Shown in pieces: positions 3,517-45,479 of a DNA stretch of 64,000 bases; position 1 is the first letter of the stretch, and each line of letters begins with the position of its first letter. A model generated the notes under the pieces. The model was not told the origin of the DNA and made no database searches. It saw only the letters and a program-made list of their open reading frames with translations. A program made the translations under genes and the position numbers. This DNA comes from Cryomorphaceae bacterium (GTDB taxonomy: Bacteria > Bacteroidota > Bacteroidia > Flavobacteriales_D > Sanyastnellaceae): positions 20,118-84,117 of the forward strand of contig WGNM01000005.1 of assembly GCA_016124575.1 (NCBI GenBank), written 5' to 3'.

Positions 3517-4559
3517 CTTTCCTGATCTTTTTTATTATCGCAATCATTGTTTGGGCGGTAAACCTGGTTTTTCTGAAGTTCTTGAAAACGCTAGGCACGA
3601 AAGATCAACAAGGAAAAATTCAAGTGCGCTGGAGTGCTCAAAGTAAACCTACAATAGGTGGTATCTCTTTTTTTATCGGCTTCCTCGTTCTGCTGGTCGT
3701 TGCGCTGATAACGCAAGGCAATCCGGGTGGATTACTCCCTCTGCTTTTGGCGGCGGTGGTAGCTTTTATTGCAGGTCTTCTCGATGATGCCTTCAATACA
3801 AACCCCCTCCAGAAATTCATGTTCCAACTGGTGTGTGCTGTTATCCTCATCGGCGGTGGTTATGTCATCAACCTCGATAATCAACTCTTTAGCATCGTTG
3901 TATCGGCGCTGTGGATCGTGGGACTCATGAATTCTATCAATATGCTTGATAACATGGATGGTATCTCAACCATTGCGAGCATGGGTGTGTTTCTCGGACT
4001 GTATTTTATAGCGCCAGAATCAATGTCGGGATACCTGGCGGGTGGCATGGTCTTCATCTTAGTAGGTTTCTTAATGGTGAATTGGCATCCGTCGAAGGTG
4101 TTCATGGGCGATTCCGGAAGCCAACTGCTCGGTCTCCTGCTCGCTGCTCTCAGTATTGCTGTATGGTGGAATCATGATGCGCTTATAAGCGGAAATGATG
4201 GGGTGAGATGGATTGGGGCTGTAACGCTCTTTTTTGTCCCTTTGTGTGATTCTACGCTTGTTTCAATCAATCGTTTGCGACACGGTCAATCGCCTTTCGT
4301 AGGCGGTAGAGACCATTCTACTCATAATTTAAGCTACCTCTCAATTTCCGATGGAAAAATCGCGTTGATCTATTCAGCATGGTCGTTGTTGATGACTTAC
4401 CTTGCGGTACGTTTGTTGATAACCTCTGTTGATGGATTTTGGAAATGGGAGGGTTTAACACTTGTGCTACTTCTTTCCATTTTTATATCTTTCTTCCAGA
4501 TTTCACGTAGAAATCTAAACCAAAGAAAATTTGAATACGGAACCAATGGAAAGCGCTAA
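3513..4559 (+). CDS. Glycosyltransferase family 4 (MraY/WecA-type undecaprenyl-phosphate sugar-1-phosphate transferase)
   Basis: 348-aa polytopic membrane protein with LDDAFN, NSINMLDNMDG and FMGDSGSQ motifs typical of the polyprenyl-phosphate hexosamine-1-P transferase family. Confidence 0.88.
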   Translation: MTFLIFFIIAIIVWAVNLVFLKFLKTLGTKDQQGKIQVRWSAQSKPTIGGISFFIGFLVLLVVALITQGNPGGLLPLLLAAVVAFIAGLLDDAFNTNPLQKFMFQLVCAVILIGGGYVINLDNQLFSIVVSALWIVGLMNSINMLDNMDGISTIASMGVFLGLYFIAPESMSGYLAGGMVFILVGFLMVNWHPSKVFMGDSGSQLLGLLLAALSIAVWWNHDALISGNDGVRWIGAVTLFFVPLCDSTLVSINRLRHGQSPFVGGRDHSTHNLSYLSISDGKIALIYSAWSLLMTYLAVRLLITSVDGFWKWEGLTLVLLLSIFISFFQISRRNLNQRKFEYGTNGKR

Positions 4560-5472
4560 AAAAATCTTGTGGCCAGTCTTACTGATATGTAATACTGGGG
4601 TGATGCTGTTGCTGTGGGGGTTCTCAGAACCAAAAGGCCCCGAACATGTCGATAAGTCGTATTCCGAACACATAGAAGACAATTACAAGGTTTTCTCACT
4701 AGCAACACCAGAAGTAGTGGTTTTCGCTGATGCTGATGTCCCGCTAGATAAATTTGGTGTCCGCGAAAAACTCGATCGCGAACTTCTCGTCAATACCTAT
4801 TGGCAAAGCAATACGTTCCTGCTCTTCAAAAGAGCCAACCGGTGGTTCCCTGTTATCGAACCTATCTTGGCTAAAAACAACATTCCCGATGATTTTAAAT
4901 ATCTGGCTGTAATCGAAAGTGGACTAACCAATGCGGTGTCTCACGCAGGTGCAACGGGTTTCTGGCAGTTTATGAAAGAAACAGGTATCAGCTACGGTTT
5001 GGAAATCAATGAAGAGGTTGATGAACGCTATGATGTAGTGAAATCTACTGAGGCGGCATGCAAATACCTCAACGATGGATACAAGCGCTTCGGTGATTGG
5101 TCGCTCGTAGCTGCGTCTTACAACATGGGCATGGGAGGCGTAAACAAGCAGCTCAACCGTCAACAAGTGAGCGAATACTGGGATCTCATGCTGAACGAAG
5201 AAACAAGTCGCTATGTGTACCGCATTCTTGCAGTTAAAGAAATCCTAAACAATGGAACAGCCTACGGATTTGTTATTCGCCCGAAAGACCTTTACGAACC
5301 ATACCAAACTCGCTCAACGGAGGTTAGTGGTAACATCGATGACCTTGCAGTATGGGCAAAAGAAAACGGCGCAAACTACAACATCGTCAAAACGTTAAAC
5401 CCTTGGATGCGTCAGACGTATTTGAAAAACTCGAAGAATAAAACGTACGAAATATTGCTTCCGAAAGAATAA
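4531..5472 (+). CDS. Lytic transglycosylase domain protein (SLT/MltD-like)
   Basis: N-terminal TM anchor. The SLT catalytic region reads AVIESGLTNAVSHAGATGFWQFM ... AASYNMG. Confidence 0.85.
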   Translation: MNTEPMESAKKILWPVLLICNTGVMLLLWGFSEPKGPEHVDKSYSEHIEDNYKVFSLATPEVVVFADADVPLDKFGVREKLDRELLVNTYWQSNTFLLFKRANRWFPVIEPILAKNNIPDDFKYLAVIESGLTNAVSHAGATGFWQFMKETGISYGLEINEEVDERYDVVKSTEAACKYLNDGYKRFGDWSLVAASYNMGMGGVNKQLNRQQVSEYWDLMLNEETSRYVYRILAVKEILNNGTAYGFVIRPKDLYEPYQTRSTEVSGNIDDLAVWAKENGANYNIVKTLNPWMRQTYLKNSKNKTYEILLPKE

Positions 5473-5478
5473 GAGAAA

Positions 5479-6555
5479 TCACTCTTTCCAATGAAAAGCT
5501 ACGCTGGCCATCCTACTTGTAGGGTGGCCTTCTGTTTTTTCATGTAGCACCATCTCCTTGCCAACGGTCGTTTCGCAAACTTCGCCTATGGTGCGTACGG
5601 CACCGATGGGGACTTGCGCTTTGTGACATTGCGCAAGTATTTCGCTGGAGTTAAATTTCTCAAATGCGCTTTGCAAGGTTTCACACAGGTGTTCTCTATT
5701 CACTACGCGGTGTGGATTGGAAGAAAGTCGACTGTCAGCGGCGACTTCGGCTATACCCAATAGCCTGCAAAGATCCATGAACTGTGCGTCGCTGCCCACG
5801 GCTGTCACCACCTGCACGCCGTCTTTACATATAAACAAGTCGCCGTATGGTGCGATGTTGGGATGCTTCGATCCTATTTGCTTGGCAACATGATTCACCA
5901 TGAGGTAGTTCGTCGCCTGATTCGACAGTGATGCTATGCCTGCTTCTTCTAAACTGGTTTTGATATACACGCCTTTTCCTGTCGCTTTTCTGCGATACAA
6001 TGCCAACAAAATGCCTTCTTTCATCTGGTGAGCTGCCAACATGTCGATAAAGGCCAAGGGCATCTTTGTAGGTGGATTGCCAGGTTGTCCGTTCATGCTC
6101 ATAAACCCGCCCTCTGCCTGCAACACAACGTCATAAGCAACGCGGTCTGTGTCGTGCGCGAATCCAGCTAAATGACAATGTATGAGTTGCGGAAATCTCT
6201 GGCGGATGGTGTCGGGGTCAACTCCAAATTTCTCTCGGTCTTTGTGCTTGAAGTTCTCGATCAATATGTCTGCAGTCGTCAACCATTGGTCTACGATTCT
6301 TCTATCGGCCTCTTCCCTTAAATCCAGGAGATATACTTCTTTGCCGTAATTTACTGAGGCGTAGTAGGCTGAAATAGACGAGTTTTGATCTTCACTGGCT
6401 AGCTTCCAACTGCGCGTAACATCTCCGCCAAACCTGCTGTTTTCAACTTTGATGACGCGCGCTCCGAGTTCTGCGAAGAAGGTTCCAACTGACGGACCTG
6501 CAAGAACGCTGGAGAGGTCGATAACGGTTATTTCTTTGAGCAAATCCATGCTCAA
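5479..6555 (-). CDS. CoA-transferase family III (CaiB/BaiF)
   Basis: 358 aa. The N-terminal VIDLSSVLAGPSVGTFFAELGARVIKVE motif and overall length fit family III CoA-transferases. Confidence 0.85.
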   Translation of the reverse strand: MSMDLLKEITVIDLSSVLAGPSVGTFFAELGARVIKVENSRFGGDVTRSWKLASEDQNSSISAYYASVNYGKEVYLLDLREEADRRIVDQWLTTADILIENFKHKDREKFGVDPDTIRQRFPQLIHCHLAGFAHDTDRVAYDVVLQAEGGFMSMNGQPGNPPTKMPLAFIDMLAAHQMKEGILLALYRRKATGKGVYIKTSLEEAGIASLSNQATNYLMVNHVAKQIGSKHPNIAPYGDLFICKDGVQVVTAVGSDAQFMDLCRLLGIAEVAADSRLSSNPHRVVNREHLCETLQSAFEKFNSSEILAQCHKAQVPIGAVRTIGEVCETTVGKEMVLHEKTEGHPTSRMASVAFHWKE

Positions 6556-6592
6556 AAGTACGCAGTTTTAAGTAGGTTTTGCGATGTCTACG

Positions 6593-7894
6593 CTATGCCA
6601 ATGCGGCTTTGTAGGTGTCGAGAGCACGTTGTCTGGCCATGGCATGATCAACCATTGGCTTCGCATACGCGCTGGTTCCCCATTCCGGAACCCATTTTTT
6701 AACGTAAATGTAGCTGGGGTCAAATTTCTCTTGCTGGCTGGCAGGTGAAAAAACGCGGAAATAAGGTGCTGCGTCGCATCCACTGCCTGCTGCCCACTGC
6801 CATCCTCCAACGTTGCTTGCTAGGTCGAAATCGAGCAACTTCTCGGCGAAGTATTGCTCCCCCCATCGCCAATCGATGAGTAGGTGCTTGGTTAAAAAAC
6901 TGGCCACCAACATCCGCACGCGGTTGTGCATAAATCCTGTTGCATTCAATTCTCGCATTCCAGCATCTACGAGTGGAAAACCGGTGGTTCCTTTGCACCA
7001 TTTATCAAAGTCGGCTTCGTCGTTCCTCCATGGAATTCGGTCGTATGCCGGTTTGAAAGATTTATCAACTGTATGCGGAAAATGATAAAGGATGCATTGA
7101 TAAAAATCTCTCCAAATGAGCTCGGTAAGCCATTTCGTAGCGCCCAATGATTGCGCTCGCAGAACCAAGTCGCGAATACTCACTGTCCCAAATCGCAAGT
7201 GTACACTCAATCTGCTGGTCCCGCGCACGGCGGGGATGTCACGGCGTTGCGCATACTGGGTAAGTATAATGTCGTCGATTTCTGTGGTGGGAAAGGATAC
7301 AGCTATGTCTTCAAAACCCATCTCTTTTAAGGAGGGCAATTTCGCGGGCTCTGTCTTTAAAAAAAGTGCAGAATTATCGTACTGATAGGTCGTAATGGGT
7401 TCTTTTTGAAGCCGTAACAACCATTTCTTGCTGTATGGTGTGAAAACGGTATAGGGCTTGCCATCGTCTTTCAAGACTTCGTCTTTTTCAAATATGACGT
7501 GGTCTTTAGCACCTACCATATTTATTCCTTGGCTCTCTAGAAATTTTGCTATGTCTTTGTCTCGCTGCAATGCATAGGGTTCATAGTCACGGCTGATATA
7601 AACGGTGTCGATGGCGAAGGTTGAGCAAAGTTGTTCAAATGCTTCTTTCGGTTTCCCGTAATAGGTCATCAAGGTCGATCCTTGCGCTTCAAGGGTGGCT
7701 TTCAAGTTGGATAGTTCTTGGTGTATGAAGGCAACACGCGCATCCGTCGTTTCAAGTCTGTCGAGTATGGATCTATCGAAAATAAACACGGGCAACACTT
7801 TGTTTGCACCTTTCGAAGCTTTAAACAAGGCCGCGTTGTCTGCTATGCGGATGTCGCGGCGCAACCACCAAATAGATACTTTTTCTTTTTTCAT
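6593..7894 (-). CDS. phrB: Deoxyribodipyrimidine photolyase (class I CPD photolyase/cryptochrome family)
   Basis: WWLRRDIRIADNAAL at the N-terminus and a FAD-binding C-terminus (WRDFY, GWQWAAGSGCDAAPYFRVFSP). I prefer the ATG at 7894 (MKKEKVSIWW) over the TTG at 7915 used by the ORF track. Confidence 0.9.
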   Translation of the reverse strand: MKKEKVSIWWLRRDIRIADNAALFKASKGANKVLPVFIFDRSILDRLETTDARVAFIHQELSNLKATLEAQGSTLMTYYGKPKEAFEQLCSTFAIDTVYISRDYEPYALQRDKDIAKFLESQGINMVGAKDHVIFEKDEVLKDDGKPYTVFTPYSKKWLLRLQKEPITTYQYDNSALFLKTEPAKLPSLKEMGFEDIAVSFPTTEIDDIILTQYAQRRDIPAVRGTSRLSVHLRFGTVSIRDLVLRAQSLGATKWLTELIWRDFYQCILYHFPHTVDKSFKPAYDRIPWRNDEADFDKWCKGTTGFPLVDAGMRELNATGFMHNRVRMLVASFLTKHLLIDWRWGEQYFAEKLLDFDLASNVGGWQWAAGSGCDAAPYFRVFSPASQQEKFDPSYIYVKKWVPEWGTSAYAKPMVDHAMARQRALDTYKAALA

Positions 7895-27373: not shown

Positions 27374-27525
27374 GGGGGTTTTTATTTATATCTAGATTGT
27401 AAGCATCCAAGAATAAGTGAAATAGGTGTGGTTGGGGTTGTGTGTGCTTCGGTTTGCTTAAAAGATATTAGCATCCATCAGCGCACCCTAATATCGCACA
27501 TACTAATTTTATAGTGATGCGTTAT

Positions 27526-27543
27526 TGGTGTATATTTACACCA
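27526..27543. promoter_or_regulatory. Inverted repeat, candidate ParD operator
   Basis: TGGTGTA-tatt-TACACCA, ending 15 nt upstream of the parD ATG. Confidence 0.4.
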
Positions 27544-27557
27544 CAACACAAAACATC

Positions 27558-27797
27558 ATGAGAAGACAAAGTATTTCCTTTACTGAGCCAAATGATGAAT
27601 GGCTTAAAAGTCAAGTTGACAGTAAAGAATATTCAAGCAAGAGTGAATTAGTTAATGATTTAATTCGTCAGGCAAGAAGTCAACAAAAGCAAATTGATTT
27701 AATTCGATTGAAGTTAGATAAGGCTGAAAAATCGGGATTTACAACTGAATCCAAATCAGAAATTTTGAAGCAATCTAAAAGTATGCTTGATGAGTAA
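27558..27797 (+). CDS. parD: Type II antitoxin, ParD/CopG ribbon-helix-helix family
   Basis: MRRQSISFTEPNDEWLKSQVDSKEYSSKSELVNDLIRQA is a typical ParD (COG3609) N-terminus. It overlaps the toxin gene by 8 nt. Confidence 0.85.
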   Translation: MRRQSISFTEPNDEWLKSQVDSKEYSSKSELVNDLIRQARSQQKQIDLIRLKLDKAEKSGFTTESKSEILKQSKSMLDE

Positions 27798-28077: not shown

Positions 28078-28213
28078 AAATTTATGGAGGCTAACCCCGA
28101 TAGAACTGCTGGCTGCTCCCCTTACTTCGAAAACGGATTTGATGAAAGAGAATAGTTTAACCCCGAATTTGGGTTTACATTAAAAAGTTCGTCACACCGC
28201 CATTCCCGAAACC

Positions 28214-28437
28214 GTCAACCTATCTAAACTCCCCCTTCCATTATTCATGTTTGAGTGTGCAGACAATCAAAAGCTTTTCTCAAACAATCCCCACCTTGGG
28301 TATCTTCAAGCAGACAATAATCGCTAGCAGCCAACCTCTTCATTTTCACAGCCTACAACCTCCGCTTGATATTCAATCTCCTACCACCACAAAAACTGAA
28401 AGCCTATTCAGCAGGCTTTTCATCGATTTCATGGGCA
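28214..28437 (+). repeat. Repeat family R2, copy 1 (block 1 at 28214-28248, block 2 at 28341-28437)
   Basis: Both blocks recur after the next TA pair (29230-29468). Block 2 ends in the hairpin AAAGCCT-attcagc-AGGCTTT. Confidence 0.85.
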
Positions 28438-28533
28438 TTTTTATCGTTTTTAGTTCCCGTTAAAGCACTTTTCGATAGTTTTTGGGGTGTATATGAAATT
28501 TTGTAAATTAGCAACAGAGCAAAAATTATATGT

Positions 28534-29072: not shown

Positions 29073-29229
29073 TAGGAATGAATTGTGGGCTCAGATAATA
29101 TGCTCTAATTATAAAACCCGCTTCACGCCAGCCTCACCTCTCTTATTCAAAAATATGTATATTATTGAATTACAGTTCTGCTCATCAAAGACAGTGTCAA
29201 AAACTCCCGCCCGCCGTGAAGCTGGAGAC

Positions 29230-29468
29230 GTCAACCTGTCTAAAAACCCCCATCCATACTTCATATTCGATAGTGTATAAAGTCAAATAGCCTTTGGTAT
29301 TAGATACACACATTGGTTATCTTTAGGTTTGAAATTCATTGCATGAAATGTTCGCCAGCCGATGCCCTCTCCATTTTCACAGCTTACAACCTCCGCCCGA
29401 TATTCAATCTCTTACCACCACAAAAACTAAAAGCCTCCCTAGTAGACTTTTTATCAAAATCATAGGCA
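29230..29468 (+). repeat. Repeat family R2, copy 2 (block 1 at 29230-29264, block 2 at 29372-29468)
   Basis: GTCAACCTGTCTAAAAACCCCCATCCATACTTCAT and CATTTTCACAGCTTACAACCTCCGCCCGATATTCAATCTCTTACCACCACAAAAACTAAAAGCCT... align with copy 1 with few substitutions. Confidence 0.85.
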
Positions 29469-29522
29469 GTCCAATTCTATTCCACCTAGAAAGAAAATAC
29501 AATACAGAATCGACTCGGCATT

Positions 29523-31196: not shown

Positions 31197-31585
31197 GATT
31201 TGATTTGTTAACTAATTCATTTTTTGCAAGATAAGACTTTCTGCTCTTGATGCCAAATACGCCACTTTAGCAAGGCCCTGCATCACATGAGCCTTATTGT
31301 CGGTGCGTGAGTGAACTTCCCAGTGAGTGAATCCGATCTGATGAGGCGAAATTCCAGGTTTACGATTCAGACATAAATATCTTTCCTATCAACCCCTAAA
31401 TTGAAGGTGATTCCCTTGTTCCTACTTGGGCTTTTCAAATCCAAGTATACCGATCTTGTGTGCTAAACATTCGGTAGGTATTTCTTGGATCACATCCCAA
31501 TTGGGGTCTTCCCTGAAATTAGCTACTCTTAAAAAACCTTCTCAATATTTTGTTCCAAGGAAAATTGTGCTGATTCATCTGTAAT

Positions 31586-31639
31586 ACACCTTCGCAATCG
31601 CCCGGCATTCAAATCAATTGATTATTTTCATGGAAAATT
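31586..31639 (+). repeat. Repeat family R1, copy a
   Basis: The core TCAATTGATTATTTTCATGGAAAATT (31614-31639) is preceded by ACACCTTCGCAATCGCCC. Confidence 0.8.
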
Positions 31640-31740
31640 AGGGGAGTGATGGGGCATTAGACAGACATCCTTTGAGCGGAATAATGATACAATCTATTGA
31701 TTGTAAGTATTGTGTGGGCAGAAATTCGTAATTTTGTTTT

Positions 31741-31902
31741 ATGAGAACCAAACAAGAAATACTGATTTATTTGTCAGAGCTTAAAGAGCGAATAGCTCAC
31801 GAAATGCCAAAAGTTCGCAAAGAAATTCGCTTGTATGAGGAAAAGAAAGCAAATGGGCAACTAACTGAAAAACCAGTTTCTGGGCCTCAGTTTAATGTCT
31901 AA
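31741..31902 (+). CDS. Small ORF (53 aa) not in the supplied track; putative antitoxin/partner of the zeta-like ATPase
   Basis: ATG at 31741, translation MRTKQEILIYLSELKERIAHEMPKVRKEIRLYEEKKANGQLTEKPVSGPQFNV, stop at 31900-31902. It overlaps the downstream ATG (31895) by 8 nt. A TAATTTTG motif (31729-31736) lies just upstream. Confidence 0.5.
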   Translation: MRTKQEILIYLSELKERIAHEMPKVRKEIRLYEEKKANGQLTEKPVSGPQFNV

Positions 31903-32497
31903 ACCAGTATTGTTAGTTGTTGCTGGCTGCAATGGCTCGGGCAAATCTTCTTTCTCCAAGGCTTTCTCTCCAAATGATGTTGTTCCCTATGACTACGATT
32001 TAGTTTTTCTTGATTTTTACAAATCACTCATTGACAATGAACTGAGAGAGCGGATGGCTCACAATTTGTCGATTGAAGATTTACGAATCAGCATTGAATC
32101 TGCAAGATCCCAAGAGAAGAATTTCTGTTATGAAACAAATTTCAATTCTACTCCGCTATATTGGCCGACAGTTTTTAAGCGCGACGATTACCGTTTAGAG
32201 CTTGCTTTCTTCTGTTTAGATTCCATTGATAAAGCAAAAGAACGTGTTAGAATAAGAGTTGAGAATGGCGGACATTTTGTGCCTGACGCTGAAATTGAAA
32301 AGCGATATGTGTTAGGTTACAAGCATTTAAATGAATATTGGGAATTCTTTGATGCAGTGCACTTATTCGAAACCAGCGAATATGATTGCGAACCCAAACA
32401 CCTGCTGACAATTGAGCAGAATGTCCTCGTGATACTTGAAGATTTTCCGGACTATTTGATTTCTTTGATCCCGAATATTGCAGACAGATTGAAATAA
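31895..32497 (+). CDS. Zeta-toxin / COG4185-type P-loop ATPase
   Basis: 200 aa with Walker A VVAGCNGSGKSSF and the size and layout of the zeta-toxin/PezT-like 'predicted ABC-type ATPase' family. Confidence 0.7.
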   Translation: MSKPVLLVVAGCNGSGKSSFSKAFSPNDVVPYDYDLVFLDFYKSLIDNELRERMAHNLSIEDLRISIESARSQEKNFCYETNFNSTPLYWPTVFKRDDYRLELAFFCLDSIDKAKERVRIRVENGGHFVPDAEIEKRYVLGYKHLNEYWEFFDAVHLFETSEYDCEPKHLLTIEQNVLVILEDFPDYLISLIPNIADRLK

Positions 32498-32738
32498 AAT
32501 TTAGGTAACACTGCATAGGCGTCGCGAGGGTTTCTGCTTCGAAAATACACTCTCAATTCGGTAAATCTTGTCGGACATACTTGAATGAAAAATTCGCTAT
32601 GAATTGCTCGTTGTCTAGCTTTAAACTCAAAGCCTAGCTGGAAGTCTATTAATTAATTTCATGCGTTTTTTTCCTGATTTTGGGGCTTTTGAAAACATTT
32701 TTTGATATTTCCTGCAAATTAAAGTGTATTTGATAACA

Positions 32739-32807
32739 CCAAATCACCTCCAAATCACCTCCAAATCACCCAGTGTTCAGTTCAATTGATTATTTTCAGT
32801 GAAAATT
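32739..32807 (+). repeat. Repeat family R1, copy b, including three tandem 11-bp units
   Basis: CCAAATCACCT x2 plus CCAAATCACCC (32739-32771), then the core TCAATTGATTATTTTCAGTGAAAATT (32782-32807). The core contains the palindromes TCAATTGA and ATTTTCA-g-TGAAAAT. Confidence 0.85.
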
Positions 32808-32865
32808 TTAACAGCAGGTAGATGATATAACAGATTGCCTTTGGCTGAAATTTAAAACAATACAA

Positions 32866-33408
32866 ATGAGTAAAAAATTAACACTAGTATTCTTTCTAAT
32901 TCAATCATTTACTATGAATGCTCAAGAAAAAGACCCATGGACAGTCTATATGACACCTTCTTCAGTTCATGAATTGTTTTCAAGGTACGAAGGGGAGTTT
33001 CAAATGGAAATGGAAATGAATGGACTAAAAGAACCTGTTCTAATTGGTTCTTCTCACAAAATGATCTTAGGTGGTCGATTCCTAGAATTAAAACAAAAAG
33101 GTAACATGATTGGTATGGAATACGAATCCATTTATACCGTTGGATTTAATACTATTGATAGCACCATTTCAATGACTACGATCACAAATATGGGGACAGG
33201 GACTTTAGCCCTTCACGGGGAATGGAACGAAAGCACAAAGACCGCAACACTTCATGGGAAACTAACTAATCCTGTTTCTAAACAAAGCATTTACGTTAGA
33301 CAGACTCTCGAGTTTGTCGATGACAATACGATTCTTATTCAAAGCTTTGACCATGAAGAAGATAAACAGGAAAAGAAAACTGTGGAATATAAATTTGTTA
33401 GACTATAG
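32866..33408 (+). CDS. Secreted DUF1579-like protein
   Basis: 180 aa with a signal peptide. The pattern ...HELFSRYEGEF... GGRFLEL ... G.W is reminiscent of DUF1579. Recognised from memory only. Confidence 0.45.
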   Translation: MSKKLTLVFFLIQSFTMNAQEKDPWTVYMTPSSVHELFSRYEGEFQMEMEMNGLKEPVLIGSSHKMILGGRFLELKQKGNMIGMEYESIYTVGFNTIDSTISMTTITNMGTGTLALHGEWNESTKTATLHGKLTNPVSKQSIYVRQTLEFVDDNTILIQSFDHEEDKQEKKTVEYKFVRL

Positions 33409-33580
33409 AAATACCCATTGCCTAATAGAGCCTAAAAAACATTGAGCAATCAGTGCTTTGATAGAGTTTTCTTTTTTTATCAAACTTTGTCTCGAAGGAC
33501 AATTTTGTAGCGTCAAAATGTCCTCCGTTTCAACCTAAGCTCGCTAGCTGCCATTTTAACTTAAACGTGCGACAAAATCA

Positions 33581-33594
33581 GCGATTTGTGTTAA
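33581..33594. promoter_or_regulatory. Direct repeat GCGATTTGTGTTAA, candidate AraC-family operator (copy 1, upstream of the AraC gene)
   Basis: The same 12-14-mer recurs at 34583-34597 upstream of the SDR genes. Confidence 0.3.
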
Positions 33595-33636
33595 TGAACT
33601 TCAGAAAGACAAAGTAATTTTGTGGAAAGAACACGC

Positions 33637-34545
33637 ATGAGCGAGGAGATTATTCATTCGAGATCAATTACTGAAATCAGGGCTGTCTTTGGTTTGGACA
33701 AGCCAACACACCCCTTAATTACAATACTTGATACACAAAAACTCGCTTATGGGGAAGAAACTGTTGGTAAACGATTCGCCTCTGATCTATACTGCATCGC
33801 TCTAAAGGATTCAAGTTGCGGAATTGAATACGGACGAAACTCGTATGACTTTGATGACGGAGTTTTAATTTTTACCGCACCTAAGCAGGTAATTACAGTG
33901 AAGAAACCCCAAGCACTGAATCAAATAAAAGGTTGGATGTTATATTTTCATCCCGACCTTTTTAGGAATACTCCCCTTGGTTCAAAAATTGATTCCTACA
34001 ATTTTTTTAACTACGAAGTGCATGAAGCTTTGCACCTGTCTATTCATGAACAAAATACCCTCAATCAAATTGTTCAGCTCATTCAAGATGAAATCAGAGA
34101 GCGAATAGATAATCATAGTCAGCAAGTATTGGTTTCGAATATTGAGTTGTTACTCAATTACAGCAAACGATTTTACGAAAGACAATTCAATACTCGCTCC
34201 GCGAGCCACACGGATATTGTTTCCAAAGTTGAAGTGCTGCTAAAAGAATATTATACAGCCAACAAGCTCATCGAAAAAGGACAACCCACTATCCAATATT
34301 TAGCAGAAAACTGCCATTTATCAGCAAGTTATTTGAGTGATCTTTTGAGCAAAGAAACAGGTCGTTCTGCTAAAGACCACATCAATGATTTTATTATCGA
34401 CAAAGCAAAACACTTGTTACTCGGATCTACCCATTCGATTAGTGAAATAGCTTATACTTTAGGCTTCAATTACCCCCATTATTTTGGTAGGCTGTTCAAG
34501 CTCAAAACAGGAAAAACACCCCAAGAATACAGGCAGTTGAATTAA
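33637..34545 (+). CDS. AraC-family transcriptional regulator
   Basis: C-terminal double HTH (IQYLAENCHLSASYLSDLLSKETG ... ISEIAYTLGFNYPHYFGRLFKLKTGKTPQEYR). Confidence 0.9.
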   Translation: MSEEIIHSRSITEIRAVFGLDKPTHPLITILDTQKLAYGEETVGKRFASDLYCIALKDSSCGIEYGRNSYDFDDGVLIFTAPKQVITVKKPQALNQIKGWMLYFHPDLFRNTPLGSKIDSYNFFNYEVHEALHLSIHEQNTLNQIVQLIQDEIRERIDNHSQQVLVSNIELLLNYSKRFYERQFNTRSASHTDIVSKVEVLLKEYYTANKLIEKGQPTIQYLAENCHLSASYLSDLLSKETGRSAKDHINDFIIDKAKHLLLGSTHSISEIAYTLGFNYPHYFGRLFKLKTGKTPQEYRQLN

Positions 34546-34550
34546 ATCGA

Positions 34551-34580
34551 AGGAAGCAAATGAAGCTTCCTTTCGCTTTT
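34551..34580 (+). terminator. Rho-independent terminator after the AraC gene
   Basis: Stem AGGAAGC/GCTTCCT with a 7-nt loop, followed by TTCGCTTTTC. Confidence 0.6.
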
Positions 34581-34582
34581 CT

Positions 34583-34597
34583 GCGATTTGTGTTTAA
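34583..34597. promoter_or_regulatory. Direct repeat GCGATTTGTGTTTAA (copy 2, upstream of the SDR pair)
   Basis: Matches 33581-33594 apart from one extra T. Confidence 0.3.
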
Positions 34598-34670
34598 CCT
34601 TTCTTTTTTCGTGTTACTCCGCTCACTCGTTCAGTCGGATATTTGATTTCATCAAAGCATTATAAAAAAG

Positions 34671-35546
34671 ATGGAACATAAAATTTTAGTAACAGGTGCA
34701 AGTGGAGCTTTTGGAAGTTTAACTTGTATTCAATTAGCGGAAAACGGTCATAAAGTGGTCGGGACATTGCGTTCATTAAAAGGGAAAAACGAAGCCATCG
34801 CAAATGAGCTAAAAGCAAAAGGTGTAGCATTGGTTGAAATGGATGTGACCAATGAAGAAAGTGTAAATGCAGGAGTAAATTCAGCCATAGAACAGATGGA
34901 TGGATTAGATACTGTTTTCAACAATGCAGGAATTGGAGCTAATGGAATTCTTGAATGCTTTACCGTAGGTGATATCCAAAAAATGTTTGACGTAAATGTT
35001 TTTGGAGTTCAACGAGTATTGAGAGCTGTTTTACCTTTTTTGAGACAACAAGGAAGGGGAACGATCATTCACACTTCAAGTTGTATCGGTAGAGTAACCA
35101 CACCATTCTTGGCTTCATACTCGGCTTCAAAATACGCTTTAGAGTCTTTGGCGGAAGGCTACCGTGCAGAACTTTCAGGATTTGGAATTGAATCGTGTAT
35201 AATAGAACCAGGCGGATATCCAACGGGTTTTATGAGTGGAATGATAACGCCAAGCGATAACGAAAGGATGAAGCAGTATGGCGAAATGGCAAGCCTTCCT
35301 GAAACCTCAATTGATGGATACGTTGCTTATGTGGAATCAATCCCCGAACAAAGACCTGAGCGAGTTGCTGAAGCCTTAGTCAATCTGGTAAATACACCTT
35401 TTGGTGAAAAACCCTTTAGAACCGTTGTTGATTTTTCTGGGTTAAAACAACCAATAGAAAACTATAATCAACTGTTGAACGAGACTACAAAAGCAATTTA
35501 CACTGCAAATGGTGTGGCTAATTTACTAAACCTAAACAAAGACTAA
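34671..35546 (+). CDS. SDR-family oxidoreductase
   Basis: Contains TGASGAFG, NNAG and the catalytic YSASK. Confidence 0.88.
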   Translation: MEHKILVTGASGAFGSLTCIQLAENGHKVVGTLRSLKGKNEAIANELKAKGVALVEMDVTNEESVNAGVNSAIEQMDGLDTVFNNAGIGANGILECFTVGDIQKMFDVNVFGVQRVLRAVLPFLRQQGRGTIIHTSSCIGRVTTPFLASYSASKYALESLAEGYRAELSGFGIESCIIEPGGYPTGFMSGMITPSDNERMKQYGEMASLPETSIDGYVAYVESIPEQRPERVAEALVNLVNTPFGEKPFRTVVDFSGLKQPIENYNQLLNETTKAIYTANGVANLLNLNKD

Positions 35547-35548
35547 AA

Positions 35549-36361
35549 ATGAGCAAAACCGTATTAATTACAGGAGCAAGCAGTGGCATCGGAAAAGCAA
35601 CTGCTATTCATTTTCAACAACAAGGATGGAACGTAATTGCGACAATGCGTTCCCCTGAGAAAGACACGGAATTAAACAAGTTGGAAAACCTACAACTTGA
35701 AAAGTTAGATGTCCTTGATGTATCAAGCATTGAACAAGCTATCCTTAACGGCATTGCAAAATTTGGCAAAATTGATGCCTTGGTTAACAACGCAGGTTAT
35801 GGTGCTTATGGTCCTTTGGAATCTTTTCCAAGAGAAAATATCATCAGACAATTCAACACGAATGTTATCGGCTTAATGGATGTTACCAAAACCATTATCC
35901 CACATTTCAGACAAAATAAAGACGGTGTTATTGTCAATATTTCTTCCATCGGTGGTCAAATGACTTTTGCATTGGGTTCTCTTTATCACGGAACCAAGTT
36001 CGCCGTTGAGGGGATTTCAGAATCTTTACACTTTGAAATGAAAGAGATAGGTGTGAAAGTTAAAATTGTAGAACCCGGATTTATTGCCACTGATTTTGGT
36101 AGTCGTTCTTTCGATTTTCAAGCAGGAAATATTGAAGATTATCAACCATTGATCGGAGCATTAATGAAACAATGGCAAAATCCGAATAACATTGTTTCGC
36201 AGCCAAGTTTAGTGGCTGAAGTAATTTTTAATGCAGTAACTGACGGCACGAACCAACTGAGATACCGAGCAGGAGAAGATGCAGATTTCTTACTCGACAG
36301 TAGAAAAAAAATGACAGACACCGCGTTTTTTGAAATGATGAATAAGCAATTGGGGAATTAA
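35549..36361 (+). CDS. SDR-family oxidoreductase
   Basis: Contains TGASSGIG, NNAG and YHGTK. It starts 2 nt after the previous SDR gene. Confidence 0.9.
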   Translation: MSKTVLITGASSGIGKATAIHFQQQGWNVIATMRSPEKDTELNKLENLQLEKLDVLDVSSIEQAILNGIAKFGKIDALVNNAGYGAYGPLESFPRENIIRQFNTNVIGLMDVTKTIIPHFRQNKDGVIVNISSIGGQMTFALGSLYHGTKFAVEGISESLHFEMKEIGVKVKIVEPGFIATDFGSRSFDFQAGNIEDYQPLIGALMKQWQNPNNIVSQPSLVAEVIFNAVTDGTNQLRYRAGEDADFLLDSRKKMTDTAFFEMMNKQLGN

Positions 36362-36480
36362 AAACGGTACCTAGCTGCAAAGCTTCCTTGCGGCTCGCAA
36401 CCCCCACCAAAAACGCATGCTGAATGAAAACAATCGCTGCAGCGAACTATGAGGTTTTAATAAGTAATTTTTGTATTGCA

Positions 36481-36510
36481 CAGCAGCTATCTCGGCTGCT
36501 GTCTTTCTTG
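36481..36510 (+). terminator. Rho-independent terminator after the SDR pair
   Basis: Stem CAGCAGC/GCTGCTG with a 7-nt loop, followed by TCTTTCTT. Confidence 0.6.
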
Positions 36511-36568
36511 ACTGTTTTTGGAGATGCAACAGCACTGTTTGCGTTTGAAAGTATATAGGGTGCTTTTT

Positions 36569-36632
36569 CACCTCCAAATCACCGTTTTAATCACCCTACC
36601 TTCATCTCAATTGATCATTTTCATTGCAAAAA
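36569..36632 (+). repeat. Repeat family R1, copy c
   Basis: CACCTCCAAATCACC..TTAATCACCC, then the core TCAATTGATCATTTTCATTGCAAAAA (36607-36632). Confidence 0.75.
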
Positions 36633-36890
36633 GACGCTCTTTCACAACCTATATAATTTCGGTAAATGCCTACCCAATGCACCCGCGAAAATGCTATTTT
36701 CATTGCTAACAGGATATCGATATCGAATTTATTGAGCCTTCGTTTTTAGCTTTCTCGGTGGCGTTTTTCATGCAGTGAAAATAGATATCTAAAGTTTCAA
36801 TTTTAAGGGTTCATGGTGACCTAATATCAATGTTTTGGATCATGTATCTTTGAACCAAAGTAATTTGATCCTTCAATCCATCGCTGAATC

Positions 36891-41921: not shown

Positions 41922-42266
41922 ATGAGAGAATTTATGATGATTTTCAGAAATGAAAAAAACGACCAACCAATGCCATCGCCTGAACAAATGCAGCAAATGG
42001 TAAAACAGTGGAATGATTGGATTGGTGGTATTGCAGCACAAGGAAAATTTGTAGCTACTAATGCTTTAGGTTATGAAGGGCAAACAGTTTCCTCAAATGG
42101 TGTGATAAGTGATGGGCCTTATGCAGAAGTGAAAGAAATTGTAGGTGGTTACATCATCGTAAAAGCCGACAACCTAAAAGATGCCGTAAAATTAAGTGAA
42201 GGTTGCCCAACACTTGCAACAGGTGGAAAAGTTGAAATTCGTGATATAATGGTTTTTAATATGTAA
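41922..42266 (+). CDS. YciI-family (DGPF-domain) protein
   Basis: MIFRNEK...PSPEQMQQMVKQWNDWIGGI...DGPYAEVKEIVGGYIIVKADNLKDAVKLSEGCP...GGKVEIRDI. Confidence 0.85.
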   Translation: MREFMMIFRNEKNDQPMPSPEQMQQMVKQWNDWIGGIAAQGKFVATNALGYEGQTVSSNGVISDGPYAEVKEIVGGYIIVKADNLKDAVKLSEGCPTLATGGKVEIRDIMVFNM

Positions 42267-43810: not shown

Positions 43811-45043
43811 TTGGACAAAAATGAACTCATACCGAATTTATTCAGAATTGAATACAGCAAAATTGTTGCGGTACTTTGCAAGCGGTATGGATTGGCAAGT
43901 ATTGAACTTGCGGAAGATTTTGTAAGTGATTCTTTCTTGAAAGCTGCTGAAACTTGGAAATTAAAAGGAATACCAGACAATCCATCGGCTTGGTTGTATA
44001 CTGTTTCAAAAAACAATGCAAAGGATTATTTTAAGAGGAATGACCATTTTCATTCCCAAATCGCTATGGAACTAAGTCGCCAAATCGAATTTGAAATTTT
44101 TGAAATCGACCTTTCTGAAGATAACATTCAGGATAGCCAATTGAAAATGTTGTTTGCAGTTTGCAACCCAATAAACACCAATGAATCGCAAATTACACTT
44201 GCACTAAGGATACTATGCGGATTTGGCATTGAGGAAATTGCCAATGCACTTTTAACTAATAAACAAACTATCAATAAAAGGATTTCTCGAGCAAAAGAAA
44301 GGTTAAGGACTGGTAAAATTGAAATATTGTTTCCATCGAGTAATGAATTAAGTGAAAGATTAGACAATGTACTACACATTCTTTATTTGCTTTTTAACGA
44401 AGGCTATTATTCTTCCACGGCTTCAACAACGGTTAGTAAAGATTTATGTTTCGAGGCAATGCGAATGCTTTACATTTTAACCAAAAACGACAAAACAAAT
44501 CTGCCCAAAACAAATGCATTGATGGCATTGTTCTGTTTTCATACTTCAAGATTTGATGCACGGATAGACCAATTTGGTCAACAGATTTTATACGACAATC
44601 AAGACAGGACAAAATGGAATTTCGAACTTATCGCAAAAGGTGAATGCTATCTTGAAAAGTCTGCATGTGGAAATCAAATTACCAAATATCATTTGGAAAC
44701 TTTGATATCATTTTGGCACACTCGAATTGAATTTGACCCAAAAGTAAAATGGGATAGCATACTGCAATTGTACAACAGACTTTTGCAAATCGAGTATTCT
44801 CCTGTTACAGCACTTAACAGAACGTATGCTTTGTCAATGGCACAAGGAAAAGAAATAGCGTTAAAAGAGGCGTTAAAAATTGAATTGAGCAACAATCATC
44901 TTTATCATTCATTGTTGGCAGAATTGTTTAATGGTTTAAATCAGAAAAAGCAAATTAAGCATCTTAAAATCGCATTGACACTAACGAATAATGAAAACGA
45001 CAAGAGTATATTAAACGACAGACTAACAAAAGCCAGCAGGTAA
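43811..45043 (+). CDS. ECF-like sigma factor with a long C-terminal domain (COG4941 / SigJ-like type)
   Basis: 410 aa. A sigma-2-like region (NPSAWLYTVSKNNAKDYFKR) and a region 4 HTH (GFGIEEIANALLTNKQTINKRISRAKERL) are followed by about 230 aa of helical extension. The YciI-family neighbour is typical for this class. The start codon is TTG. Confidence 0.78.
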   Translation: MDKNELIPNLFRIEYSKIVAVLCKRYGLASIELAEDFVSDSFLKAAETWKLKGIPDNPSAWLYTVSKNNAKDYFKRNDHFHSQIAMELSRQIEFEIFEIDLSEDNIQDSQLKMLFAVCNPINTNESQITLALRILCGFGIEEIANALLTNKQTINKRISRAKERLRTGKIEILFPSSNELSERLDNVLHILYLLFNEGYYSSTASTTVSKDLCFEAMRMLYILTKNDKTNLPKTNALMALFCFHTSRFDARIDQFGQQILYDNQDRTKWNFELIAKGECYLEKSACGNQITKYHLETLISFWHTRIEFDPKVKWDSILQLYNRLLQIEYSPVTALNRTYALSMAQGKEIALKEALKIELSNNHLYHSLLAELFNGLNQKKQIKHLKIALTLTNNENDKSILNDRLTKASR

Positions 45044-45479
45044 CAGCAGTTGCAAGAAATGCCGAAAAAAGTTCAAAGTTCACGTTTATCTTTCGCAAGA
45101 CATTTTTTTTTACCAGAAAATATTCAGTTCCGAAGTTCGCCACTTCTTGTAGCTGCGACACGTTGGTTTGTTGTCATTGGCGGTGAGATTCAAGTAAAGT
45201 ACAACTCCTAAGTTCAGAAAGGAACGCAAAGATCATCGCTGTCGTTCTTCCCTGTAAAGCAATCGGGAAGTCGATTTTGGCCTTTTGCTCACTCCTGCTT
45301 CCTTGCTGCGGCAAGTGCCCATTGAATGGGTAAATGGTTTTGGTGGTTTTTCTATCGCCTGAGTTGAATTCAACCATCTATTCACAATCAACTTTCCCTT
45401 CAATCTAACTATCTTTCATTCAAGGTGGCTGAATTATTGTTGTAGAAGCAGCTAAATCAATCATCTTGATGTTGTCCAA

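Follow-up and report, generated by a model that had tools for sequence, protein, structure and literature searches.

Chromosomal integrons carry array-specific families of near-identical attC sites, the Vibrio VCRs being an example, and in streptococci the accretion of cis-mobilizable elements (CIMEs) and integrative and conjugative elements (ICEs) stacks integrase-less elements at the att site of a tyrosine recombinase in an attL, attP-like and attR order. Among short repeats bound by proteins, the omega-repressor heptads (WATCACW) of the omega-epsilon-zeta module of pSM19035 are contiguous, 7 bp apart, and ParR binds 11-bp repeats in parC. Clusters of attC sites without an integrase are known as CALINs (PMC4889954, PMC9024848), and integrons have been reported to be rare in Bacteroidota (PMC9024848, PMC8618304). 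Here, a stretch of 64,000 nucleotides (the window) from contig WGNM01000005.1 of a Cryomorphaceae metagenome-assembled genome (MAG; GCA_016124575.1) was analysed, in which three copies (a, b and c) of a repeat family, R1, bracket two successive gene modules: a 53-aa antitoxin with a zeta-family toxin, and a DUF1579 gene followed by an AraC-SDR-SDR block. The R1 copies may be joint repeats from the stepwise accretion of modules in a now-decayed cassette island, a reading that we prefer while holding it for somewhat short of probable.

R1 resembles each of these systems in part and differs from each. Like sedentary integron arrays and CALINs, it consists of co-oriented, lineage-specific repeats that separate small accessory and toxin-antitoxin modules with no integrase nearby, and the island resembles them further in that one of the bracketed modules is demonstrably a former cassette. 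Unlike an integron attC, however, R1 shows no R''/R' pair, imperfect hairpin or model match, and the attC of the zeta module is a separate site. The accretion of elements at att sites is resembled by the direct repeats, the shared core and the partly hybrid arms, with short repeats placed beside the core in the manner of lambda-type arm sites, but no integrase is encoded in the window plus about 19 kb past its edges (about 83 kb in all), and copy a has a left arm that has kept its similarity to the other two. The R1 box AATCACC resembles the omega heptad WATCACW, with a zeta-family toxin beside copy a, and the 11-bp phasing is that of parC; yet the R1 boxes lie 11 bp apart rather than 7 and form an exact array in one copy only, and no omega-like or ParR-like gene adjoins R1, the ParD-type ribbon-helix-helix antitoxin sitting at 27525-27797. 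Similarly, short exact direct repeats in helical phase beside AT-rich DNA are reminiscent of plasmid iterons, whereas the absence of a rep gene or backbone, the mere 2.9 repeats of 11 bp in one copy and the chromosomal setting are not.

The three R1 cores all lie on the + strand, each at the position at which the original prediction had placed it, and the repeats are real by several measures. The 17-mer TCAATTGATYATTTTCA has three perfect matches in the window and four when up to three mismatches are allowed, against 1.45 expected; core identity is 17/17 for a and b and 16/17 for c. A profile built from the three copies recovers only those three in the window, the runner-up match having E = 0.3. 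The cores are embedded in a repeat longer than the approximately 26 nt first described: in-register identity gives a three-way similarity of about 75 nt (roughly -50 to +25 relative to the core), and between copies a and b the alignment covers about 86 nt (31608-31693 versus 32776-32861), with a score of 47 against a null of 17 +/- 3. Within this repeat the conserved core comprises about 23 bp, TTCA-NN-TCAATTGAT-Y-ATTTTCA, of which the three copies share 17-23 nt. It is conserved above its flanks, with 20 of the 23 columns invariant, whereas roughly 25-45% of the aligned flanking positions differ; the permutation test over all columns gives p = 0.004, and the same test limited to the homologous block is marginal (p = 0.06).

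The arms on either side of the core form a mosaic. Left arms (-60 to -7, core excluded) are homologous in the three copies (z = 4.8 for b-c, 3.3 for a-c and 1.6 for a-b), with an exact 16-mer, TCACCTCCAAATCACC, common to c and b, whereas right arms (+26 to +85) are related between a and b only (z = 3.1, p = 0.002), the right flank of c being unrelated to either. Considered as att-site arms, the right arms thus match for a and b alone and the left arms match best for b and c, yet a is also related on that side. In copy b, both the perfect inverted repeat ATTTTCA-g-TGAAAAT and the three exact tandem 11-mers were confirmed, the latter by Tandem Repeats Finder (32739-32770; period 11, 2.9 copies, 100% match). 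An exact iteron-like array is confined to copy b: copy c has two to three boxes, copy a has only degenerate AATCACC-type boxes on its left side (CATCTGTAATACACC and CAATCGCCC), and exact CCAAATCACC sites occur in the window at 32739, 32750, 32761 and 36574 only; the exactness of the array in copy b may reflect slippage. All three copies are intergenic and co-oriented, each 5' of a + strand gene, and copy b is preceded by GATAAC/AC (a slash marks a junction here and below). The similarity of a candidate second partial copy downstream of c was not significant (p = 0.27). Outside R1, perfect TTTTCA-N4/5-TGAAAA dyads are found at 41941-41956 and, downstream of copy c, at 36765..36781 (+, spacer N5). 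Coordinates of the repeats and of the genes around them are given in the table.

Table. Positions of R1 copies, bracketed modules and adjoining features in the window.
Feature	Position	Strand	Remarks
R1 copy a	31564..31640	+	core TCAATTGATTATTTTCA at 31614-31630
Right arm of copy a	31641..31693	+	common to copy b only; spans left boundary of zeta cassette (31670/31671)
R1 copy b	32732..32808	+	core 32782-32798; perfect dyad ATTTTCA-g-TGAAAAT
Exact tandem 11-mers CCAAATCACCT, 2.9 copies, inside copy b	32739..32770	+	
Right arm of copy b	32809..32861	+	homologous to right arm of copy a; stops just 5' of DUF1579 start codon at 32866
R1 copy c	36557..36633	+	core TCAATTGATCATTTTCA at 36607-36623
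Fossil integron-type cassette	31671..32632	+	53-aa antitoxin 31741-31902, zeta-family toxin 31895-32497, decayed attC
Decayed zeta attC	32503..32632	+	R'' GGTAAC kept; R' GTTA changed to TCAA; hairpin lost
DUF1579 gene	32866..33408	+	outside the AraC unit conserved in other genomes
AraC-SDR-SDR block	33544..36373	+	DNA-level conservation in other Bacteroidota
C-terminal remnant of a SnoaL-like 259-aa gene	31437..31505	-	about 22 aa plus stop
Terminator-like hairpin	36480..36502	+	after second SDR gene, upstream of copy c

R1 was searched for in sequence collections with a 23-nt pattern satisfied by all three copies. The two matches among GTDB species representatives and the seven in JGI metagenomes cover the core only, with the upstream boxes absent, and are attributed to chance; two scans of IMG/VR returned 81 and 15 matches at chance level, the sole partial profile match lying within a phage gene. 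No further copy occurs in the approximately 19 kb past the window edges, so that the three copies in about 83 kb all fall within 5 kb.

The setting of R1 is a low-GC island, in which GC content drops from about 0.45 to 0.36-0.42 across 28-46 kb of the window. Synteny with the sole relative stops at about 27420, just past bshC, which marks the left edge. From bshC onwards the window contains two ParDE modules, with an R2 repeat of about 400 nt behind each, and a minus-strand gene with a type IX secretion (T9SS) tail; then R1a with the antitoxin and zeta-family toxin, R1b with DUF1579, AraC and two SDR genes, and, after R1c, Reg_prop, cytochrome c peroxidase and small stress-type genes, the last encoding an extracytoplasmic-function (ECF)-type sigma factor. 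The gene content of both bracketed modules thus agrees with the original prediction. Left of copy a, the SnoaL-like remnant breaks off roughly 60 nt before the three-way similarity begins at 31564. In a Chitinophagales MAG (L015) its intact homologue is located about 0.9 kb 5' of the same AraC unit. This arrangement points to an older SnoaL...AraC block whose interior gave way to the zeta and DUF1579 segments.

The zeta module is the better documented of the two. Homologues of its toxin share 72-86% identity, and one identical toxin protein was found in at least three different contexts. At the DNA level, similarity to the window extends from 31680/31719 to 32510/32559, and the contexts on other contigs converge upstream and diverge downstream exactly at ...GCRTAGC-N6-7-C/GTTR. 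Behind the toxin gene stands an element of roughly 128 nt that starts with YTAAC and ends with GTTR. In metagenomic contig L020 this element is found after three different genes, and the contig has at least ten co-oriented copies. An alignment of 15 such sites shows R''/R', L''/L' and central-stem pairs that are 89% paired, against 24-33% with slid partners, with compensatory changes at three base pairs, and bona fide attC bottom strands from L020 and L021 fold with z = -2.3 and -1.2. Judged by this sequence evidence, the antitoxin/zeta pair outside the window is a genuine cassette of integron type: it carries an attC of about 128 nt and occurs in at least three contexts, which part precisely at G/TT. 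In the window, the corresponding segment still scores 24.8 bits with a 6-site profile and 14.7 bits with a covariance model (CM), and has lost the fold (z = +0.8 and +1.2).

Several observations were made alongside. The antitoxin/zeta cassette of the metagenomic contigs carries its own canonical Bacteroidota -7 box, TACATTTG. True co-oriented arrays of the 128-nt attC are present in L020 (2204-11774) and also in L021-L026, contigs that are presumably of Bacteroidota origin. In L027, from another metagenome (4617-5276 and 6121-6779), and likewise in L028, direct repeats of about 660 nt with 91-96% identity bracket the zeta cassette; those of L027 are spaced 1,504 nt apart and end exactly at /GTTAG. 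Genome-specific bracketing repeats may be a general feature of this cassette; as for R1, it shows no significant similarity to the boundary repeats of L027 and was dismissed as their kin. L027 additionally contains, in a non-coding stretch (477-516), four exact tandem copies of a 10-mer, ATATCACGTG.

The second module has a history of its own. Its AraC protein is 85-90% identical to proteins of Cyclobacteriaceae, Flavobacteriaceae, Chitinophagales, Lewinella and Aureispira, and AraC-SDR-SDR forms a conserved unit across several Bacteroidota orders in unrelated contexts, with DNA similarity confined to the tabulated block and stopping well short of R1b and R1c. A putative operator, GCGATTTGTGTT(A/T)A, precedes both araC and the first SDR gene (33578-33596 and 34580-34598, about 30 bits each with a weight matrix) and is strictly conserved in four genomes. 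To judge from these comparisons, AraC-SDR-SDR is an independently mobile, horizontally shared unit. In some genomes araC is separated from the SDR genes by inserted genes.

Taken as joints, the R1 copies would have arisen when an incoming or circular segment with one R1 recombined with a resident R1 in a Campbell-type event, through a site-specific enzyme whose gene lies elsewhere, or else by recombination at short homologies. Each event would leave direct repeats flanking the new module, and successive integrase-less modules would be joined serially, with the core of about 23 bp as the crossover or protein-binding segment and the AATCACC boxes at 11-bp spacing as accessory binding sites, which slippage would have multiplied in copy b. 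Recombination at R1, and its enzyme or mechanism, are what we infer from the following: the three co-oriented copies occur only within 5 kb of a low-GC island starting after bshC; the modules between them have separate histories; and the arm mosaic resembles the attL, attP-like and attR pattern predicted by serial integration at one site. In addition, the truncated SnoaL-like gene adjoins copy a and has an intact, AraC-linked homologue; the R1 core is better conserved than its flanks; the copies are not placed like promoters or operators (93, 216 and 34 nt to the respective boxes); and other attC-like relics occur in the island.

Other findings weigh against the joint reading. Neither the zeta nor the AraC-SDR-SDR homologues in other genomes and contigs are accompanied by R1, and, with R1 absent from all collections searched, mobility of R1-bounded units is not observed. 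The region is present in one other assembly only, which is identical in sequence, and the nearest sampled relative (BshC 80% identical) is represented by a 3.9-kb contig that ends 168 nt after bshC, so that no empty site is available for comparison. On that contig (L019) the TCAATTGA palindrome occurs at 3873-3880, 157 nt 3' of bshC, and the contig ends 4 nt later; a repeat at this point may have interrupted the assembly. The borders of the mobile units (31680-32559 for zeta, 33544-36373 for AraC-SDR-SDR) lie 40-790 nt inside the R1 copies, contrary to the expectation that copies would always sit at module boundaries. Copy a retains a left arm akin to those of b and c, which would not be the case for a simple attL, and the similarity between a and b extends 23 nt into the zeta cassette, for which segmental duplication is a better fit than a clean site-specific crossover. 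Genes for integrases, transposases or serine recombinases are absent from the 83 kb, and R1 fails the attC tests by hidden Markov model (HMM) and CM, by folding and by generic scan described below. Of the proposed insertion at module borders, the mobility of the modules, the island after bshC, the arm mosaic and the truncated gene beside copy a are in favour; a recombinase site at those borders is not supported, given that the zeta unit has a different attC of its own, that homologous modules lack R1 and that no recombinase gene lies in the 83 kb.

Alternatively, R1 could be a shared cis-regulatory module, in which an unlinked transcription factor acting on the dyads (TCAATTGA; TTTTCA..TGAAAA), and possibly on the AATCACC boxes, co-regulates the three downstream units, the copies having been duplicated and the core kept under selection. 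We consider this rather unlikely, although several features of R1 are in line with it: every copy lies 5' of and co-oriented with a + strand gene, the core is conserved above the flanks, dyads combined with direct repeats at 11-bp phasing are typical of bound DNA, and copy c follows a terminator and hence sits at the start of a transcription unit. Dyads of the TTTTCA-TGAAAA type (spacer 0-8, at most one mismatch) are over-represented, the window having 17 where block shuffles have about 3, and an extra perfect one lies downstream of c. The distances to the promoters are nevertheless variable. Roughly ten start codons in the window have a canonical -7 box (TAnnTTTG) 4-43 nt ahead of them. For the antitoxin this box is at 31729, 93 nt 3' of the R1 core, and for Reg_prop at 36845, 216 nt 3' of it, whereas DUF1579 has no canonical box, its near-box TGCCTTTG lying about 34 nt downstream of the core. 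The two local candidate binders that the idea of a shared operator could call upon both speak against it: AraC has a different, well-conserved operator, with R1 positions scoring -3 to -5 at best, and the 53-aa antitoxin, predicted to form a single helix and no DNA-binding fold, is not likely to bind the adjacent R1. Moreover, homologous modules elsewhere do without R1, no functional link is evident among the three downstream units, and no other copy exists in about 83 kb. With slightly lower probability still, R1 may have no function and be what segmental or tandem duplication and deletion left behind locally in a fast-rearranging island, with core conservation due to chance or gene conversion and the 11-mers to replication slippage. 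The a-b similarity of about 86 nt that crosses the cassette boundary, the second family R2 with its mosaic fragments in the same island, the marginal core-versus-flank test within the homologous block and the lack of detectable relatives in the collections searched are all in keeping with such an origin; 17 identical core bases in a and b (16/17 in c) beside flanks differing by about 25-45%, the orientation and intergenic position kept by all three copies and the non-random arm mosaic are not.

It is improbable that R1 is a strongly diverged attC native to the array, a private VCR-like family whose hairpin was lost after the loss of the integrase, even though near-identical array-specific attC families are known and R1a and R1b lie where the preceding attC sits in intact arrays. 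In sequence, GCATTAGACAGACATCC/TTTGAG in the right arm of copy a can be aligned with GCGTAGCTGTGAGCC/GTTACC, which precedes the cassette of L020, and GATAAC/AC before b resembles the R'' box of the validated attC family. An attC was recognized by R'' (RYYYAAC) and R' (GTTRRRY) ends, a long imperfect hairpin with extrahelical bases, and a model match. With the HMM and CM built on 15 sites of one attC family, R1 gives no match when the cutoff is relaxed to E < 10-50, and nothing is returned by the reciprocal search either; copies a and b end in CC/TTTG rather than G/TT, and an AAC box (GATAAC) is present left of b only, without a complementary GTT. Single-stranded folds of all three copies, computed for both strands with DNA parameters, are unremarkable (z between -1.0 and +1.4), and the generic scan for R''/R' plus L-boxes, whose output is at background, has no candidate at R1 or R2. 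An apparent likeness by eye (AAATCtATT..CTTCGGAAAA to the R1 core, and GATAAC before b) was rejected, being unsupported by HMM, CM, reciprocal search, scan or folding. R1a stands directly before the boundary of the zeta cassette, yet the cassette's own attC already lies between the toxin gene and R1b, so that R1b would need a separate 208-nt cassette without an open reading frame (ORF). A bolder reading, for which we see just as little likelihood, is that R1 constitutes a double-stranded, non-hairpin recombination site, with a palindromic core and 11-bp arm-type boxes, at which an unlinked recombinase strings together integrase-less modules in a chromosome of Bacteroidota, a cassette-accretion system that would be distinct from integrons and would have captured former integron cassettes.

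The island nonetheless contains other attC-like relics. At 45038-45170 (+), beginning with the stop codon of the ECF-sigma/DUF6596 gene, an attC-like sequence bounded by GGTAAC and GTTGGT has a 13-bp L-box stem and scores 17.7 bits with the CM (E about 0.02); it is plausibly an intact attC. After ParE2, 29118-29225 forms a long imperfect attC-like hairpin (bottom strand -18.5 kcal/mol, z = -2.45) that ends just before GTCAACC; it belongs to a different sequence family, and its ParE1 equivalent does not fold. A marginal CM match at 33420-33561 (E = 2.5) was discarded because it folds as an internal terminator. A sequence-independent attC scan of the window is at background, with 19 candidates against 7-14 in shuffles. 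Such relics combined with a background-level scan indicate an island that has cassette heritage and is not an intact array; nor does it amount to a complete integron or a CALIN, as no IntI-type protein is encoded in the 83 kb and 12 kb separate the attC-like sites, which are in part decayed.

Various other identities for R1 were examined and set aside. It does not represent the Bacteroidota core promoter, as no TAnnTTTG box occurs within it, and a scan for sigma-70-type promoters and terminators in general gave counts at background. A by-eye likeness to the reverse complement of GCGATTTGTGTT had suggested an AraC operator, but the matrix ranks the best R1 positions below 350. The antitoxin was discarded as a ribbon-helix-helix binder because it is predicted to be a single long helix (pLDDT 85) with no family matches. 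A known RNA family was likewise dismissed: Rfam at the gathering threshold yields zero matches in the window, and a permissive search gives only sub-threshold eukaryotic families. A miniature inverted-repeat transposable element was rejected because the sequences flanking a and b are homologous to each other, so that these copies are not independent insertions; only three copies occur in 83 kb, all within 5 kb. Plasmid iterons or a parC centromere were rejected given that the window has no rep or parA/parM-parR gene, nor any plasmid or ICE backbone, and that the exact array is restricted to copy b. As for R2, its two copies (28101-28477 and 29111-29519, about 400 nt, with a 122-nt core 80% identical) follow one ParDE module each and both start at GTCAACCT(A/G)TCTAAA; they may be duplicated ORF-less cassettes. 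The 3' tail of R2 has a weak match (E = 0.002) at 32623..32707 (+), between the zeta attC relic and copy b.

Should R1 turn out to be no more than a regulator site or the scar of a duplication, this would be an ordinary finding. The most useful result is collateral: one module is a fossil integron cassette, and the other holds a horizontally shared Bacteroidota unit. The attC arrays met while tracing the zeta module are useful examples as well, provided that their Bacteroidota origin holds. If the R1 copies are true joints, however, the island would record the assembly of accessory genes from cassettes of mixed origin without a linked integrase, in a poorly sampled lineage of Bacteroidota, and would show that fixation of a classical integron cassette with loss of its attC is possible, the example being a zeta toxin-antitoxin pair that brings along a Bacteroidota-type promoter.

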